DNA of 64,000 nucleotides from a virus (IMGVR_UViG_3300042691_050360:32001-96000); one strand, 5' to 3'. Numbered from the stretch's first letter, positions 4,337 through 63,469 are shown. Notes: generated by a model from the letters alone, not told the origin. Numbers and translations are program-made.

Positions 4337-6078
4337 ATTCAAAAGAATGGATTGTCAAAGACGTGGACAGAGAATTATCCGCAGTATTAGCTGATGAATG
4401 TGAATTGCCTAAGTCAATTGCTACCGTCTTGGTTGGCCGCGATATTGATACAAAAGAAAAGGCGGCAATATTCATCGATAAGCCAACTAAGCTAATTAGA
4501 AGCCCTTCGAAGCTTCCAGATTGTGCCAAAGCGGTTGAAAGATTAAAAACGGCGATTGAAAATAAAGAAAAGATTTTTGTCTGGGGAGACTATGACGTAG
4601 ATGGTATTACTTCTACATCTATTATTGTAACCTGCTTTGAGATGTTTGGTGCTAAATTCATTTACAAAGTTCCAAACAGATTTGATGATGGCTATGATAT
4701 TAAACGACACTCTGTAGATGAATGTATCAAAGAAGGTGCTACTCTCCTTCTGAGTGTAGACTGTGGCATTGTTGCTTTTGACACTGCGGAATATGCAAAG
4801 GAGAAAGGAATTGATGTTATAATTACGGATCACCACACAGCTTCTGAAGATGGAAGAATTCCAGATTGTGTTGCTGTTGTTAACCCCTCTCGTATTGATT
4901 CAGAATATGGCTTTGCTGGGCTCTGTGGTGCCACTGTCGCGTTCAAACTAATGCTTGCTCTTGGTAATGCACTTAATTATGATTTAAATAAAATCATTGC
5001 CGAAACAATAGAATTTGTGGCACTTGGAACAGTAGCTGACGTTGCCCCCATGATGGATGAAAATAGAGTTCTCGTTCATAAGGGCTGTCAAGCTTTGACT
5101 AATTCAAGTAAGCCAGGGATTCAAGAGCTTTTGAAAATTGCTGGTGCCAAAGAAGTGGACACAACCACTATAGGATTTGGTATTGGCCCAAGAATGAATG
5201 CAATTGGAAGATTGTCCGACCCAATGATTGCTGTAGAGTTAATGCTTGAGAAAAATCAACAAAGGGCTAAGTTCCTAGCAAATCAGCTAGATACTGCAAA
5301 CAAAAGAAGACAATCTAAACAAGAACATATGTATCAAGAGGCAATTGCTTTGATTGAAGAGGAAAAACTTCACGAAATGCCTGTAATTGTTTGCTGGGCT
5401 AAATCTTGGCATGCTGGTTTGATTGGCCTTATGGCTGGGAAGATTGCAGAGCGTTATCATAGACCCGCTGTAGTTCTCTCACTTAACGAGGAAGGAAAAG
5501 CTAAAGGATCGTGCAGATCAGTTAAATCAATTAATATTCTCCAGGCTTTGAAGAGTCCTAAAGTCCTTGAGTATTATTCAAAAAAGATTGATGGAGCTCC
5601 AATTGTTGGTGGTCACGCTTTCGCCGCTGGCATGGAAGTGCCCGAGCAAAATCTTAAAGCTTTCAGGGATGTACTTGGTGAGGCTTTACAGGATTTAAAT
5701 CCAGATTTTGTTGCTGGTAAAAAAGTTTTTATTGCTGATTCTAGAATCGTGCCTGGAGAAATTAATGATAATACTTTCGATGCCTTGACGGGACTAGCAC
5801 CTTTTGGATCTGGTCATCCTGAGCCAATTTTCTGGGTGAAAAATCTCACAGTACAAGATCAAAAACTCCTATCATCTGATAAGCACTTAAAGTTAACGCT
5901 ATACCATGACCGCGTAAAATACAAAAAATTCTCTGCACTTTTATGGCATAAAGCGGCGGACTATCCAGATAATTACGTTGATAAAAATATTGATGTGCTG
6001 TTCTCATTCGGAAAAGAAACTAGGGGTTTTGGATCAAGATTTTACCTAAATATGGTTGATTTTAGACTTTCTAGCTAA
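4333..6078 (+). CDS. recJ: ssDNA-specific exonuclease RecJ
   Basis: GDYDVDG, VDCG, ITDHH, GTVADV, PRMNAIGRL, GSCRS, GGHAFAAG, LAPFGSGHPEP. Confidence 0.96.
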   Translation: MNSKEWIVKDVDRELSAVLADECELPKSIATVLVGRDIDTKEKAAIFIDKPTKLIRSPSKLPDCAKAVERLKTAIENKEKIFVWGDYDVDGITSTSIIVTCFEMFGAKFIYKVPNRFDDGYDIKRHSVDECIKEGATLLLSVDCGIVAFDTAEYAKEKGIDVIITDHHTASEDGRIPDCVAVVNPSRIDSEYGFAGLCGATVAFKLMLALGNALNYDLNKIIAETIEFVALGTVADVAPMMDENRVLVHKGCQALTNSSKPGIQELLKIAGAKEVDTTTIGFGIGPRMNAIGRLSDPMIAVELMLEKNQQRAKFLANQLDTANKRRQSKQEHMYQEAIALIEEEKLHEMPVIVCWAKSWHAGLIGLMAGKIAERYHRPAVVLSLNEEGKAKGSCRSVKSINILQALKSPKVLEYYSKKIDGAPIVGGHAFAAGMEVPEQNLKAFRDVLGEALQDLNPDFVAGKKVFIADSRIVPGEINDNTFDALTGLAPFGSGHPEPIFWVKNLTVQDQKLLSSDKHLKLTLYHDRVKYKKFSALLWHKAADYPDNYVDKNIDVLFSFGKETRGFGSRFYLNMVDFRLSS

Positions 6079-6114
6079 ATTCAACGTATATATTCTTAGT
6101 GCATTAGGGAAATT

Positions 6115-7023
6115 ATGAAAGTAGATTTAATTAATTCAGAAATACAATTAAGACTTGAGGATGCCGTCTTAAAGTATCAAGCGGTGTCCGCAAAAGGTGA
6201 TAAAAACGATATAGAATTAGCTTATAAGAAAATAACTAAACTATACAATCCTCTAGATTTCTATCACAATTGGTATGATCAATATTATTATCTTTTTGAT
6301 TCTCAGGAAGATTTTGTCGCAGATTATTTGAGAGTTTTTGCCACGGTATTGCTTGGCTGGAAACCAAGAAACCAAAGGGGCAAGTCGAGATATGAAGGAT
6401 CTGGAGAATTTAAGAACTATTTTATCGGATCGCTTTACCATAATTACATAAACATGGTAAAATCTGATCAGGCGGCAAAAAGAAATATAACAAAACTATG
6501 CCCAATCTGCGATGAATGGGTCAACCCGATTTCCACTCACCTGATTACCGACCACTCACACATTCTTTGGCAATATCTGGAAGAAATGGATATTGATATT
6601 GAAAGTCTTTCATCATGCCCTTTATGCACTAATTTCAAGGTGGCAAAGAGCAACAACGATCCTAAGAAAATTACAGAACTCCTAAAGGCACATTTTATTT
6701 CAAAACACACAAGCTTGCTGTTCAATAAATTCAATGAAATGTACCCCGAAATATCAACTATTTCCCCGAAAATCTCATCCACATCTGTGCATGAGGGCGA
6801 TGAAGAGCTTGATTTATATGAAGTAGTTGAAGAAAAAAACAACTTACTTAGCAAATTGCACTTTTTAAATCTCACAGACGTGCAAAAACACGCAATCGAG
6901 CAAGTTTTAAACGGCGATACGAATTTGACGTACAAGCCTGATAAATATAAATGTACAAAAGAACAGTGGGAGATCGAAATGGAATCCCTTAGGGAGACGA
7001 TAAGTATTTATGGATATGAATGA
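6115..7023 (+). CDS. Sigma-70-like transcription factor with two inserted C2H2 zinc fingers
   Basis: Region-2-like EDFVADYLRVF..GEFKNYF..NYINMVKSDQAAKR; CPIC-x9-H-x4-H and CPLC..LKAHFISKH; degenerate region-4 start LTDVQKHAIE. Confidence 0.5.
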   Translation: MKVDLINSEIQLRLEDAVLKYQAVSAKGDKNDIELAYKKITKLYNPLDFYHNWYDQYYYLFDSQEDFVADYLRVFATVLLGWKPRNQRGKSRYEGSGEFKNYFIGSLYHNYINMVKSDQAAKRNITKLCPICDEWVNPISTHLITDHSHILWQYLEEMDIDIESLSSCPLCTNFKVAKSNNDPKKITELLKAHFISKHTSLLFNKFNEMYPEISTISPKISSTSVHEGDEELDLYEVVEEKNNLLSKLHFLNLTDVQKHAIEQVLNGDTNLTYKPDKYKCTKEQWEIEMESLRETISIYGYE

Positions 7024-7402
7024 AAAACCTGTTTTGGCTGAAAACACTTCAGCAACCGATGAAAGATTTACTTTTCCTGGCGACCCTCTAACTCTAAAAG
7101 TGAGAGGAGGGGATGTTGACCCCGACAGGCCAGAAAGGAAACCAACTGATCCAGTGGCGTTATCAAGAGCTATTCTTCATGTTTTGGGCAAAAATGAATA
7201 TGTAAGAATCTTATCAGTAGGCCCTAAAGCTTTGACAATCGCAATGAAGGCATTTAGAATAGCTTCGAGCGAGGCAGAAAGCCGCACCAATGGAGCTGTT
7301 TTGGTTTGTAGACAGTCGGAATATGAAGCAATTATCGCAAATAAAAAAACGAAAGGCGTATGCACAAGAATTTTCGGAATCCCAATCAAAAACGCCCTAT
7401 AG
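7010..7402 (+). CDS. spoVS: SpoVS family protein (Alba-like fold)
   Basis: TDPVALSRAILHVL..RILSVGPKALTIAMKAFRIA aligns by eye with the SpoVS core SNPNSVAGALAGVL..EIQAIGAGALNQAVKAVAIA. Confidence 0.7.
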   Translation: MDMNEKPVLAENTSATDERFTFPGDPLTLKVRGGDVDPDRPERKPTDPVALSRAILHVLGKNEYVRILSVGPKALTIAMKAFRIASSEAESRTNGAVLVCRQSEYEAIIANKKTKGVCTRIFGIPIKNAL

Positions 7403-62295: not shown

Positions 62296-62313
62296 TTATC
62301 TAGCACCCCTGTA

Positions 62314-62802
62314 TTATTGTCCCCCACTCTTACCCCCTTGTGTGGGGTTTTTCGGAACACCCTGGAGCGGCGACCTTACAAACCTACTCCCCCTTGTGTT
62401 GCGATTGCCGTATATTCTCAATTCACCATTCTGTAGCTTAAACAACTGATCATAAGCCCACTTATTTCTCTCCTTTATGGCATCAGACATCTGCCTGTCT
62501 GCACCCTGTAATTTTTGCTCGTATATTCTCGCTGCCGCAAAAATAGCAACGATCTCTGGAACAGGCTTCGGGTAATTCACTTCCCCATCAAAATTCACTT
62601 TCTTTAATGGCACGTCATATTGAGTGGCTAAGGCTCCATCCACTTCATCAGAGGCTGCCTCTACAAAATAGTCCAGGTCAATATTGAAAACAGATTGTGG
62701 CGTAGGATTCCTATAGTCCGGCGAAGGATTGTCACCTTCAACAACAATATTCGGCGGCAAATATTTTTTAACGTCTTCTTTTGAGCAGTATAATCTAGCC
62801 AT
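62314..62802 (-). CDS. Head-tail adaptor (Mu gp36/DUF1320-like)
   Basis: YCSKEDV..VEAASDEVDGALATQYDVPL. Confidence 0.75.
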   Translation of the reverse strand: MARLYCSKEDVKKYLPPNIVVEGDNPSPDYRNPTPQSVFNIDLDYFVEAASDEVDGALATQYDVPLKKVNFDGEVNYPKPVPEIVAIFAAARIYEQKLQGADRQMSDAIKERNKWAYDQLFKLQNGELRIYGNRNTRGSRFVRSPLQGVPKNPTQGGKSGGQ

Positions 62803-63469
62803 TCATTTCCCCTTCTACATTCTGTAAATATCCAGGGGTGTAATTTTCACCCTCTTCTTCTTCTAATAATCCATAGCTTGACAACTTATTCCTTGGGATT
62901 TCTGTGTAAACAGGAATATCTTCAAGCTCAGATCCGCTTCTTGCCGCTGAAGATAAAACCCTTGGATAGTCTATGTCCAAGTCCTTATAAGCCTTTGAGT
63001 GTGCATTATAAATCTCCACAAAATCTGGCTCATATGGTGTACTTTGCCAATTCGAAATAGCTCTTGCAGTAGATCTCGAAAGATCATAAAGCATGACTTT
63101 GCCACCCTGAGTTTTAGCTTGTTTGATTGCATCTTGTATGCCCAGCCCTTGAGGTATGTTCTTTTGGATGTTATAAAAAACAGCTTTGATTTTCTCACTA
63201 CTAACATAATCTTGACCAGGAATAACCTTTAAGTCAATTTTATTATTGATAGCCTGCTGTCGAGCAACCATTCCTGGTTCAATGCCGAACCTGGAAACCA
63301 ACCCAATAACATCAAGCCCTTTAATTATCGCGGAAGACAAAATGGATTTAATCTTAGCTTCAATATCTTGCTGCGTGGAGGGCTCTAATTCATCACCAAT
63401 GTAAACACGCATATCTACTCTTAGATTGTGTTTCCTTAGTGCTGTTTTTAGAAATCCTGAATACCACAC
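62795..63469 (-). CDS. Degenerate PHP-fold protein
   Basis: LRVDMRVY, GLDVIGLVSR, LKVIPGQD, DFVEIYN and SSAARS map onto PHP motifs with the metal ligands replaced; MWY..LKTA leader; late promoter AGGA-N18-TAAAT. Confidence 0.65.
   Translation of the reverse strand: MWYSGFLKTALRKHNLRVDMRVYIGDELEPSTQQDIEAKIKSILSSAIIKGLDVIGLVSRFGIEPGMVARQQAINNKIDLKVIPGQDYVSSEKIKAVFYNIQKNIPQGLGIQDAIKQAKTQGGKVMLYDLSRSTARAISNWQSTPYEPDFVEIYNAHSKAYKDLDIDYPRVLSSAARSGSELEDIPVYTEIPRNKLSSYGLLEEEEGENYTPGYLQNVEGEMNG

Follow-up and report, generated by a model that had tools for sequence, protein, structure and literature searches.

A short, asymmetric DNA word, CACAATCT, is kept abundant in the genome of an uncultured lake jumbo phage by selection on the DNA rather than on the encoded proteins. 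With moderate confidence, we regard it as the recognition word of a lineage-specific DNA-binding protein that would use it both as a promoter operator and in a genome-wide role. The window analysed here is a stretch of 64,000 nt, positions 32001-96000 of a 166,522-bp record labelled G000, which is a half-length contig. It contains 29 exact copies of the core word, 15 on the plus and 14 on the minus strand, versus 2.95 +/- 1.88 (maximum 10) in dinucleotide-preserving shuffles, which upholds the roughly 10-fold over-representation claimed in an earlier note on this DNA. All 27 start positions given there are exact, but two copies had been overlooked (11938 on the minus and 38728 on the plus strand), and 19 rather than 18 copies extend to ACACAATCT. 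In the whole record, CACAATCT occurs 92 times and is the top-ranked 8-mer under Markov models of orders 1, 3 and 4, while its extension ACACAATCT is found 65 times versus 2-5 expected. The extended form is (A)CACAATCT(G), with the consensus A-CACAATCT-G/T-A. The copies in the window, in coordinates of the whole stretch, and the sigma factor gene that lies behind one of them are as follows.

4518..4525, minus: word copy, antisense in the RecJ-like gene 4333-6078; not conserved in G165
4863..4870, minus: word copy, antisense in the RecJ-like gene 4333-6078; conserved at the orthologous place in G165
11938..11945, minus: word copy, antisense in gene 11794-12783; conserved in G165
12254..12261, minus: word copy, antisense in gene 11794-12783; not conserved in G165
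12675..12682, minus: word copy, antisense in gene 11794-12783; conserved in G165
12771..12778, plus: word copy whose end lies 16 nt upstream of the sigma-70-family ATG, immediately followed by a TG-TAAAAT -10-like box
12794..13522, plus: sigma-70-family factor gene with domains Sigma70_r2 and r4_2; its promoter bears the word
13533..13540, plus: intergenic word copy whose end lies 16 nt upstream of the beta-clamp ATG, in the spacer preceding a TATAAT box
14803..14810, plus: word copy, sense frame 0 (His-Asn-Leu) in gene 14632-15483
17902..17909, minus: word copy, antisense in the large terminase gene 17558-19663; conserved in G165
29852..29859, minus: word copy, antisense in the portal gene 27823-30174
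38383..38390, plus: first of six word copies in the LAGLIDADG endonuclease gene 38364-39668, sense
38728..38735, plus: second copy in the LAGLIDADG gene
39088..39095, plus: third copy in the LAGLIDADG gene
39140..39147, plus: fourth copy in the LAGLIDADG gene
39341..39348, plus: fifth copy in the LAGLIDADG gene
39499..39506, plus: sixth copy in the LAGLIDADG gene
42632..42639, plus: word copy, sense, 15 nt into gene 42617-43573
42925..42932, minus: word copy, antisense in gene 42617-43573
44416..44423, plus: word copy, sense in gene 43975-45105
45198..45205, plus: word copy, sense in the nucleotidyl-transferase gene 45140-46006
45523..45530, minus: word copy, antisense in the nucleotidyl-transferase gene
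45927..45934, plus: word copy, sense in the nucleotidyl-transferase gene
46344..46351, minus: intergenic word copy whose end lies 18 nt upstream of the start codon (ATG) of small gene 46009-46326 (minus)
46656..46663, minus: word copy whose end lies 18 nt upstream of the start codon (ATG) of paralogous small gene 46363-46638 (minus), in a duplicated promoter segment
46742..46749, plus: word copy, antisense in gene 46644-47090 (minus)
48232..48239, minus: word copy, antisense in gene 47754-48293
56648..56655, plus: word copy, antisense in the 1585-aa gene 56507-61264 (minus)
62692..62699, minus: word copy, sense in gene 62314-62802 (minus)
63423..63430, minus: word copy, sense frame 0 in gene 62795-63469 (minus)

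The LAGLIDADG gene thus holds one copy more than the five first reported for it, and its orthologue in the related phage G003 has three, all sense. Near-absence from the core head genes, also noted earlier, is borne out by a total of two copies between 17.5 and 37.4 kb. The copies at 46344 and 46656 are a true duplication, the duplicated promoter segment being common to both. Over the whole record, the word is found in all six frames, with 48 sense, 35 antisense and 9 intergenic copies, in agreement with the earlier remark on mixed frames and orientations; 83 of the 92 (~90%) are intragenic. Site density on the phage chromosome is ~1 per 1.4-1.8 kb. Orientation is random (45 plus, 47 minus; runs test z -1.25) and spacing along the genome is near-Poisson, an arrangement whose lack of positional logic favours no particular mechanism.

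That selection acts on DNA, as the earlier note had proposed, is supported by several lines of evidence. When synonymous codons were permuted inside each gene 300 times, 24.3 +/- 3.8 copies (maximum 36) were obtained versus the 92 observed (z 17.8). This codon-preserving shuffle had been set beforehand as the refuting test and failed to refute the proposal; together with the spread across all frames, it excludes codon or peptide bias. The word also saturates the places where the protein sequence would allow it: the 8-mer occupies 83 of 205 such places (40%) versus 1-9% for control words, the 9-mer fills 58 of 94 (62%), and all 12 His-Asn-Leu tripeptides are spelled using the word. Information is limited to ~11 bp, the flanks of dispersed copies being without similarity. 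The check on synonymous sites gave a third-codon-position identity to relatives of 0.72 within words versus 0.50 outside, and conservation in place points in the same direction. Words of G000 are retained at the orthologous position in 10 of 21 cases in G165 (10.9% for random 8-mers, p 3e-5), 9 of 38 in G002 (5.7%, p 2e-4) and 4 of 6 in G001 (13%), so that survival is 4-5 times that of random 8-mers. Not conserved in place are ~75-80% of copies against G002 and about half against G165. Since most copies turn over in place, selection would act on their number rather than position, or be weak; the comparisons suggest purifying selection with turnover.

Enrichment is restricted to one narrow phage lineage. 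It is seen in G000, G001, G002, G003, G165 and L348, all uncultured lake jumbo phages, while the word is at background in L347/L350, L345, L346, L349, G004, G005 and G011-G015. An about equally close sister lineage lacks it: the Pol III alpha of word-less L347/L350 is 80% identical to that of G000, and that of word-rich G002 82%. Flank preferences (A at -1, G at +8, A at +9) are identical in G000, the dispersed part of G002, and G001 with G003, which suggests one shared reader. The word is not of host origin. In the likely host phylum, the Armatimonadota, it is at background in five MAGs chosen as carriers of the closest prepilin homologues (the 9-mer occurs 10-13 times per 3.3-4.1 Mb), and 151 genomes contain 0-27 copies of the 10-mer per 2-9 Mb; likely-host density is ~1 site per 300 kb.

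Five G000 copies lie in or beside promoter spacers, 16-23 nt before start codons. The four for which promoter adjacency had been claimed (12771, 13533, 46344 and 46656) each end 16-18 nt ahead of a start codon. The promoter-linked copies of G000, those at 12771 and 13533 among them, are not conserved in the orthologous promoters of G002 and G003, which speaks against the reading we prefer; at the G002 orthologue of the 46344 promoter, the form AACAATCT, with one mismatch, is found. Among G000 promoters, the main leaderless class (AGG ~34 nt before ATG) is devoid of the word.

In relatives, the word occupies promoter spacers and forms inverted pairs and tandem arrays. The 99%-complete G002 possesses ~79 copies of one early-promoter cassette, in which a conserved TTTCCAGGTTTAAC is followed by a variable spacer of 9-10 nt, then by TTATAAT and, after 4 nt, the ATG. 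Of the spacers, 29 consist of the word, 8 of CATAATCT and 3 of the inverted word, and ~39 are unrelated in sequence. Because so many spacers hold unrelated sequence, the word is dispensable for the promoter itself. These cassettes arose by duplication and are not independent evidence, except for their spacer variation. This cassette recurs in G165, where the spacer contains the word and another copy lies upstream. In these two relatives, which keep the early region, the stretch between the -35 and -10 boxes can thus take up the word, in either orientation, or do without it. Seven inverted pairs in G002, start-to-start 22 bp (~two helical turns), flank the -35 box, and tandem copies are spaced by 10 and 14 bp, eight of them at G002:68386-68491. 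Noncoding arrays of direct and inverted copies lie at 33.19-33.63 and 68.39-68.49 kb of G002; no such array is present in the G000 contig. With ~70 tandem 170-bp units, the early region totals ~150 word-bearing repeat units. Outside it, orientation is again random (99 plus, 99 minus; runs test z 0.43). Inverted word pairs also adjoin terminators in G002. The early region, which carries the strongest evidence, is absent from the G000 contig.

Optional occupancy of early-promoter spacers (G002, G165) and the tandem arrays of G002 strengthen the earlier suggestion of a repressor or other DNA-binding protein site. We infer that a protein binds the word and that, where the word lies between the -35 and -10 boxes, it would serve as an operator; the simplest action of the bound protein would be to block RNA polymerase, so that some of the early promoters are shut off. 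The intragenic copies (~90%) would start no transcription; dispersed sites may instead load the protein onto the phage chromosome or concentrate it there, and so provide a reservoir, a roadblock or a tag of self-DNA. The closest known sites are the stoperators of Cluster A mycobacteriophages, bound by the L5 gp71-type monomeric immunity repressor (PMC9283540, PMC6550527); they are 13-mers in promoters and short intergenic gaps, oriented along transcription as their function requires (PMC9283540). The phage word is likewise an asymmetric single unit, lineage-specific, found in early promoters and recurring along the genome (stoperators ~every 2 kb). Unlike stoperators, it has an 8-11-nt core, is mostly intragenic in all frames, is randomly oriented and belongs to a ~350-kb jumbo phage.

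The reader is most likely phage-encoded, from the part of the genome missing in the contig. Pfam domain searches and orthologue comparison with relatives identified no reader protein. For each of the DNA-binding candidates put forward earlier (6115, 7010 and 21187), word-less relatives have an orthologue, so that none of the three tracks the word. Repressors of the L5 gp71 type combine an HTH with a Stoperator domain; Pfam HTH_3 is absent from G000 and G002. A winged-helix candidate beside Pol III alpha (G000:28983-29612, HTH_36-like) was rejected, as its copy in word-less L347 is 61% identical and that in word-rich G002 48%.

Several other explanations have to be weighed. A replication-initiator box is unlikely. 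DnaA boxes and iterons (E. coli DnaA, plasmid and phage iterons) are asymmetric words on the scale of a 9-mer that cluster as direct and inverted copies in noncoding DNA; DnaA boxes also lie in promoters, for regulation, and scattered, where they possibly titrate the protein. The asymmetric 9-11-mer of the phage resembles them in form and layout. On this reading, the G002 arrays would be origins, promoter copies would reflect initiator-dependent regulation, and dispersed copies would titrate. Word-bearing G000 promoters precede the clamp gene and a sigma gene, and the bacterial-type replisome (DnaB helicase, IstB/DnaC-like loader, DnaG zinc ribbon and Toprim, Pol III alpha, beta clamp) comes without a recognisable initiator among its genes. 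However, no DnaA domain IV is encoded: the C-terminal domain PF08299 is absent from G000, G002, G004, G011 and G013 and was found in 10 of 14 control genomes. Moreover, the winged-helix candidate is not distributed like the word, which is missing from equally related lineages that have this replisome and whose enrichment and saturation in coding sequence are far stronger than is familiar from DnaA boxes. A target of a phage or host modification or restriction-related enzyme, kept abundant in the manner of HIP1, is distinctly unlikely. Type I, IIG and III enzymes do read short, strictly defined, non-palindromic sequences, but restriction targets are normally avoided rather than enriched, and tandem arrays, fixed-spacing inverted pairs and promoter-spacer placement would be left unexplained. 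The HIP1-like role raised earlier is not supported: HIP1 is palindromic and such words have a cognate DNA methyltransferase, whereas the phage word is non-palindromic, at background in Armatimonadota and randomly oriented, and G000 and G002 have no match to the methyltransferase families PF01555 (N6_N4_Mtase), PF02384 (N6_Mtase) and PF00145 (C5 DNA_methylase). Nor does a ParB-type partition site, also raised earlier, find backing, since neither genome has a match to ParB_N (PF02195), in contrast to ParB-parS systems, which encode a protein with this domain along with its sites.

We consider it very unlikely that the word is a promoter element read by a phage sigma factor or RNA polymerase, with intragenic copies as internal or cryptic promoters. 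Candidates to read it exist: a second sigma-70-family gene lies in the window at 15470-16024, and G002 encodes a third sigma, of ECF type, without match in word-less relatives. The word does sit inside promoters of G002, G165 and, five times, G000. Yet the intragenic copies, found on both strands, lack a conserved -10-like box at any constant distance. In G002, roughly half of the cassettes function in the absence of the word, and in three it is inverted; the main promoter class of G000 does not contain it. A by-product without a reader, whether of codon or peptide bias, of small-repeat remnants or of short-patch gene conversion from the ~150 early-region units, is highly improbable. Donors abound in the cassettes and tandem units of G002, and the window itself contains one true duplication; against this stand the codon-preserving shuffle and all-frame spread, the loss of similarity past ~11 bp around dispersed copies, and conservation at silent positions above background. 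Least credible is a host-derived signal (Chi, an uptake sequence or similar) copied by the phage, a proposal already largely refuted. Uptake sequences (DUS of Neisseriaceae, USS of Pasteurellaceae) belong to competent bacteria, where they are read by the uptake machinery; at ~1 per kb they occur on both strands and in any frame, override codon choice and form inverted pairs at terminators. The genome-wide statistics of the phage word are alike (~1 copy per 1-2 kb, both strands, all frames, inverted pairs by G002 terminators), but its carrier is a virus, the candidate host genomes are not rich in it, and close phages, presumably on related hosts, lack it. The Chi-like role proposed earlier fails on the same background level and on random orientation, as Chi would be abundant in the host chromosome and polar relative to replication.

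Recognition by a lineage-specific DNA-binding protein thus remains the reading we prefer. Its functional picture is shared by SPO1 TF1 and phi29 p6, proteins of lytic phages that bind along the whole phage chromosome and also repress early promoters; these differ in relying on modified bases or DNA bendability and not on a strict dispersed word. A bolder version, possible but doubtful, is that the word is a self-DNA tag, by which a lineage-specific phage factor distinguishes the phage chromosome from host DNA by the word alone for some genome-wide task. This task could be protection, compaction, compartment targeting or packaging choice; control of early promoters would then be a secondary use. 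If true, such a tag would amount to uptake-sequence logic inside a virus, gained or lost between lineages that still share ~80% identical replication proteins.

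The window holds 29 copies of the word CACAATCT (15 on the plus and 14 on the minus strand), against 2.95 ± 1.88 in dinucleotide-preserving shuffles. The earlier note had counted 27; every position it listed is correct, and two copies, at 11938 (-) and 38728 (+), had been overlooked. The window spans bases 32001-96000 of a single virus record of 166,522 bp (38.5 % G+C, without terminal repeat, 46 % complete according to CheckV), hereafter G000. That record contains 92 copies, and under order-1, order-3 and order-4 Markov models no other 8-mer is as over-represented; enrichment of the sub-words themselves leaves a maximal-order model without informative value. 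The longer forms ACACAATCT and ACACAATCTG occur 65 times (2–5 expected) and 33 times (about 1 expected) in the whole record. Counted position by position, the information around the 92 sites is limited to -3 to +9, with nothing conserved outside; A stands at -1 in 71 % of the sites, +8 is G in 50 % and T in 29 %, and A is also favoured at +9. Single-base neighbours of the word are weakly enriched, the best being the transition variants CACGATCT and CACAGTCT. A candidate second dispersed word, GATGGAACAG, turned out to be a 9-bp tandem repeat outside the window (G000:132009-132280, locus L217). This repeat, which reads CTGTTCCAT on the minus strand and runs to some 30 units including variants, sits within a 1971-aa ORF (128396-134311) and explains the second "over-represented" 10-mer.

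Frame and shuffle tests relied on a gene call that was crude but dense, with 151 ORFs and 96 % of the sequence coding. The 92 copies are distributed over all six frames, 48 being sense, 35 antisense and 9 intergenic. The codon-preserving shuffle, which the earlier note had named as a means of refutation, leaves the word significant: when synonymous codons were permuted within each gene 300 times, 24.3 ± 3.8 copies were obtained (maximum 36) against the 92 observed (z 17.8), and the result is alike for the 9-mer and the 10-mer. Considering as protein-compatible every site where a synonymous change would permit the word, the 8-mer is present at 83 of 205 such places and the 9-mer at 58 of 94; control words of similar composition fill 1–9 % of theirs. 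Every one of the 12 His-Asn-Leu tripeptides uses the codons CAC AAT CTN. The shuffle and the filled places mean that the word is written against codon preference, and it is not accounted for by a bias in peptides or codons.

Scanning IMG/VR with the portal protein yielded 63 loci, and one further record, G165, came from a scan for tandem word copies. Counts were made on whole records, with the reversed word as control.

Word-bearing relatives of G000, with copies of the word and of the reversed control
G001: 30 kb, portal 87 % identical; word 18, control 1
G002: 347 kb, 99 % complete, portal 69 %; word 389, control 21
G003: 38 kb, portal 66 %; word 13, control 2
G165: 62 kb, 80–90 % identical proteins; word 53, control 2

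The word-bearing group has a sharp boundary. The word is at background in G004, G005 and G011-G015 (portal about 50–61 %). In the replication-gene segment it occurs 1–2 times per 20 kb in the L347/L350 contig, and 7–8 times in each of G000, G002, G165 and L348; yet the Pol III alpha of the L347/L350 contig is 80 % identical to that of G000, against 82 % for G002, and its RecA, RecJ and AAA proteins are also similar. No replacement word was found in the word-less relatives. The candidate "dialect" words of L347 (GAGCAAGA, top 8-mer, 8 copies against 0.95 expected) and of L345 (CTACTATA, top 8-mer, 7 against 0.55) are absent from independent parts of their contigs (8.6 and 9.7 kb, respectively) and are treated as winner's-curse hits. 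No dispersed word was seen in G004, G011 and G013, where the highest-ranking k-mers stem from codon repeats or from a terminator hairpin, and megablast of the window gave no match among GenBank phages; GTTTACAC is a comparable lineage-specific word of other phage DNA. The flank preferences are identical across all word-bearing genomes, which argues for one reader, i.e., one putative DNA-binding protein recognising the word.

Retention, scored as a word at the same place in codon alignments of orthologues, clearly exceeds that of random 8-mers: 10 of 21 G000 words are kept in G165 (random 10.9 %, p 2.7e-5), 9 of 38 in G002 (5.7 % in the same genes, p 2e-4) and 4 of 6 in G001 (13 % in the same genes, p 0.004). 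Synonymous-site conservation in relatives, the check proposed earlier, gives an excess inside words, third-position identity at identical amino acids being 0.72 there and 0.50 outside. Existing copies are thus under purifying selection. The initial idea that selection acts on DNA is backed by the codon shuffle, the protein-compatible places and silent-site conservation alike. Despite this excess retention the majority of copies sit elsewhere in relatives, and the pattern suggests that the number or density of words matters, not their particular places.

Word orientation in G000 is random (45 plus, 47 minus; runs test z -1.25) and spacing is near Poisson with mild clustering (CV 1.32). Density amounts to 3.75 per 10 kb in genes with homologues in word-less relatives, 8.65 in lineage-specific genes and 9.6 in orphan genes. 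The highest value in the record belongs to a free-standing LAGLIDADG endonuclease gene (38364-39668, Pfam) with six copies, all sense, and not five as first counted for this homing endonuclease; the G003 orthologue has three. The gene lies directly after gene 37401-38255 (98 % identical in G001), which probably encodes the major capsid protein; it is present in G003 and absent from G001 and G002. The reported scarcity of the word in head genes holds for G000 (2 copies in 20 kb) but not for its close relative G001. The Mu-like portal protein (27823-30174) carries a C-terminal DUF559/restriction-endonuclease-like domain (residues 669-767), an unusual fusion.

Five copies in G000 end 16-23 nt before start codons, in or beside -35/-10 spacers, and two of these five lie ahead of the genes for a sigma-70-family factor (12794-13522) and the beta clamp (13556-14650). 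The word does occur next to promoters, as the earlier note held, but these copies are not conserved at the orthologous G002 and G003 promoters. Two neighbouring paralogues at 46009-46663, encoding small proteins of 105 and 91 aa, share a duplicated segment of about 60 bp that takes in promoter, 5' end and the word. In many G000 genes (e.g., at 21187, 41286 and 48318) the start codon is preceded by AGG(G/T/A) at about 34 nt and by a TAAAT-like box at about 7 nt; this leaderless promoter class is without a Shine-Dalgarno sequence, and the word is not a component of it.

G000 is syntenic with G002:70.5-232 kb, and the counterpart of the first 70 kb of G002, which bears about 79 copies of one early-promoter cassette, is missing from the contig. 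The cassette consists of a conserved TTTCCAGGTTTAAC, a 9-10-nt spacer, TTATAAT, 4 bases and the start codon; the proximity of TTATAAT to the start codon implies leaderless or near-leaderless mRNAs. According to the cassette listing, the word occupies the spacer of 29 copies and its inverse that of 3; CATAATCT, with one mismatch, is found in 8, and about 39 have an unrelated sequence there, so that the promoter works without the word. The word is an add-on between the -35 and -10 boxes, accepted in either orientation, as is typical of operators. Seven cassettes have a second, inverted word 22 bp upstream (start to start), beyond the -35 box. The exact cassette was found in G002 only within IMG/VR; G165, more closely related to G000 than G002 is, keeps 6 kb of the early region, where this cassette recurs, its spacer being the word and another direct copy lying upstream. 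G002 also encodes a full-length translation initiation factor IF-3 (L064:2047-2559, IF3_N + IF3_C), which may matter for start-site selection, since most early mRNAs there look leaderless.

Noncoding arrays are found in G002 as well; like the inverted pairs and the tandem ORFs described below, they fit operator-like behaviour. At 33.19-33.63 kb, four 46-bp units, each with two words 10 bp apart, are accompanied by two direct and two inverted copies, and at 68386-68491 eight copies follow each other at a 14-bp period. From about 14.4 to 33.2 kb (L064-L065) run some 70 tandem small ORFs of 50-68 codons with a 160-180-bp period, each with a Shine-Dalgarno-like AAGGTG, a common N-terminus MINTDCV and an opening stretch that bears the word on the opposite strand. 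Reverse-complemented, their conserved 5' end reads "word + G + TATTAAT + CAT"; it thus resembles the promoter core copied in antisense. This 18-kb block may be a gene family, a putative binding-site array, or both.

The best candidate clue to the host is a prepilin-like gene (39978-40955, minus strand), 89 % conserved among G000, G001 and G002, whose closest cellular homologues, 69-71 % identical over the full length, belong to lake Armatimonadota MAGs. These MAGs contain 10-13 copies of ACACAATCT per 3.3-4.1 Mb, against 3-9 for the control, and a sample of 151 Armatimonadota genomes contains 0-27 copies of ACACAATCTG per 2-9 Mb, compared with 33 in 0.17 Mb of phage. The copies in the sole genome with 27 lie at contig ends, which indicates a repeat. 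The Armatimonadota MAG G102 has 22 same-strand copies of ACACAATCTG near many contig ends; these probably reflect a repeat present in many copies, at which the assembly breaks and which has no relation to the phage. A host origin of the word was rejected, the word being at background both in the prepilin-homologue MAGs and across the phylum. Given this host assignment, Chi-type, uptake-type and HIP1-type host signals are not supported, and this includes the Chi-like and HIP1-like options of the earlier note.

For a strict 10-11-bp asymmetric word, the simplest account would be a lineage-specific, sequence-specific DNA-binding protein. It is favoured by silent-site selection, orientation indifference and optional promoter-spacer placement, by tandem copies at one-helical-turn and inverted pairs at two-turn spacing, and by absence from host-phylum genomes together with loss or gain between about equally related phages. 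Bound to a promoter-spacer word, such a protein would act as an operator-bound factor; given the overlap of the site with the core promoter, its most likely effect would be to repress some of the early promoters. Of three roles considered for the dispersed copies, the likeliest would be to concentrate the factor on phage DNA, as a reservoir or tag; roadblocks that work in either orientation come next, followed by titration of an initiator. Protein binding, repression and the role of the intragenic majority are what we infer here.

The replisome of the phage is of bacterial type.

Replication and related genes of the phage
4333-6078: RecJ-like nuclease
8817-10466: ribonucleotide reductase
12794-13522 and 15470-16024: two sigma-70-family factors
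13556-14650: beta clamp
Upstream of the window, by synteny with the relatives' gene tables (L345-L351): SbcCD-like proteins, AAA protein, IstB/DnaC-like protein, DnaB
Upstream of the window, by the same synteny: DnaG zinc ribbon, Pol III alpha, RecA, Toprim protein

No replication initiator was recognised at 4333-16024 or in loci L345-L351. A winged-helix (HTH_36-like) protein encoded beside Pol III alpha was an attractive candidate reader because the bacterial-type replisome has no recognisable initiator; it was rejected, since word-less phages have members of its family that are more similar than that of word-rich G002. A 154-aa lineage-specific protein (G000:14576-15040) was discarded as strongly acidic. 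Pfam was run on 40 mostly lineage-restricted ORFs from the window, from elsewhere in G000 and from G002; the only DNA-binding matches over the cut-off were the window sigma-factor gene 12794-13522 and an extra ECF sigma of G002, located at 320400-320987. This third, ECF-type sigma of G002 is lineage-restricted. The reader was not found among the candidates examined. DnaA_C, ParB_N, HTH_3 and three methyltransferase families were absent in the Pfam domain search, which leaves the partition-protein and methylation-linked options raised earlier without ParB_N or any of these methyltransferases.

To our knowledge, a good understanding of dispersed lineage-specific words that prevail over codon choice exists only for bacterial uptake sequences, for Chi and for the stoperators that one group of temperate mycobacteriophages carries. 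The word resembles bacterial uptake sequences in its statistics and DnaA boxes in its anatomy (boxes, arrays, promoter copies), but membership of either class fails on the tested features. Among described systems, the operator/stoperator set of Cluster A mycobacteriophages comes closest; there, a monomeric repressor recognises a 13-mer asymmetric site at more than 20 positions in promoters and short intergenic gaps, with an orientation tied to transcription (PMC9283540). Combined promoter and genome-wide use, density and lineage specificity are shared with that set, whereas two defining features, intergenic location and transcription-tied orientation, are not, and the phage is of a different kind.

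The carrier is a large lake phage, probably lytic, of the poorly known host phylum Armatimonadota, and its genes are saturated with a signal comparable to uptake sequences, Chi or stoperators. What reads the word, and to what end, is a question sharpened by the combination of an optional operator in either orientation with presence or absence between about equally related lineages. Should the reader turn out to label phage DNA as self, viruses would have a new means of organising or protecting their chromosomes.
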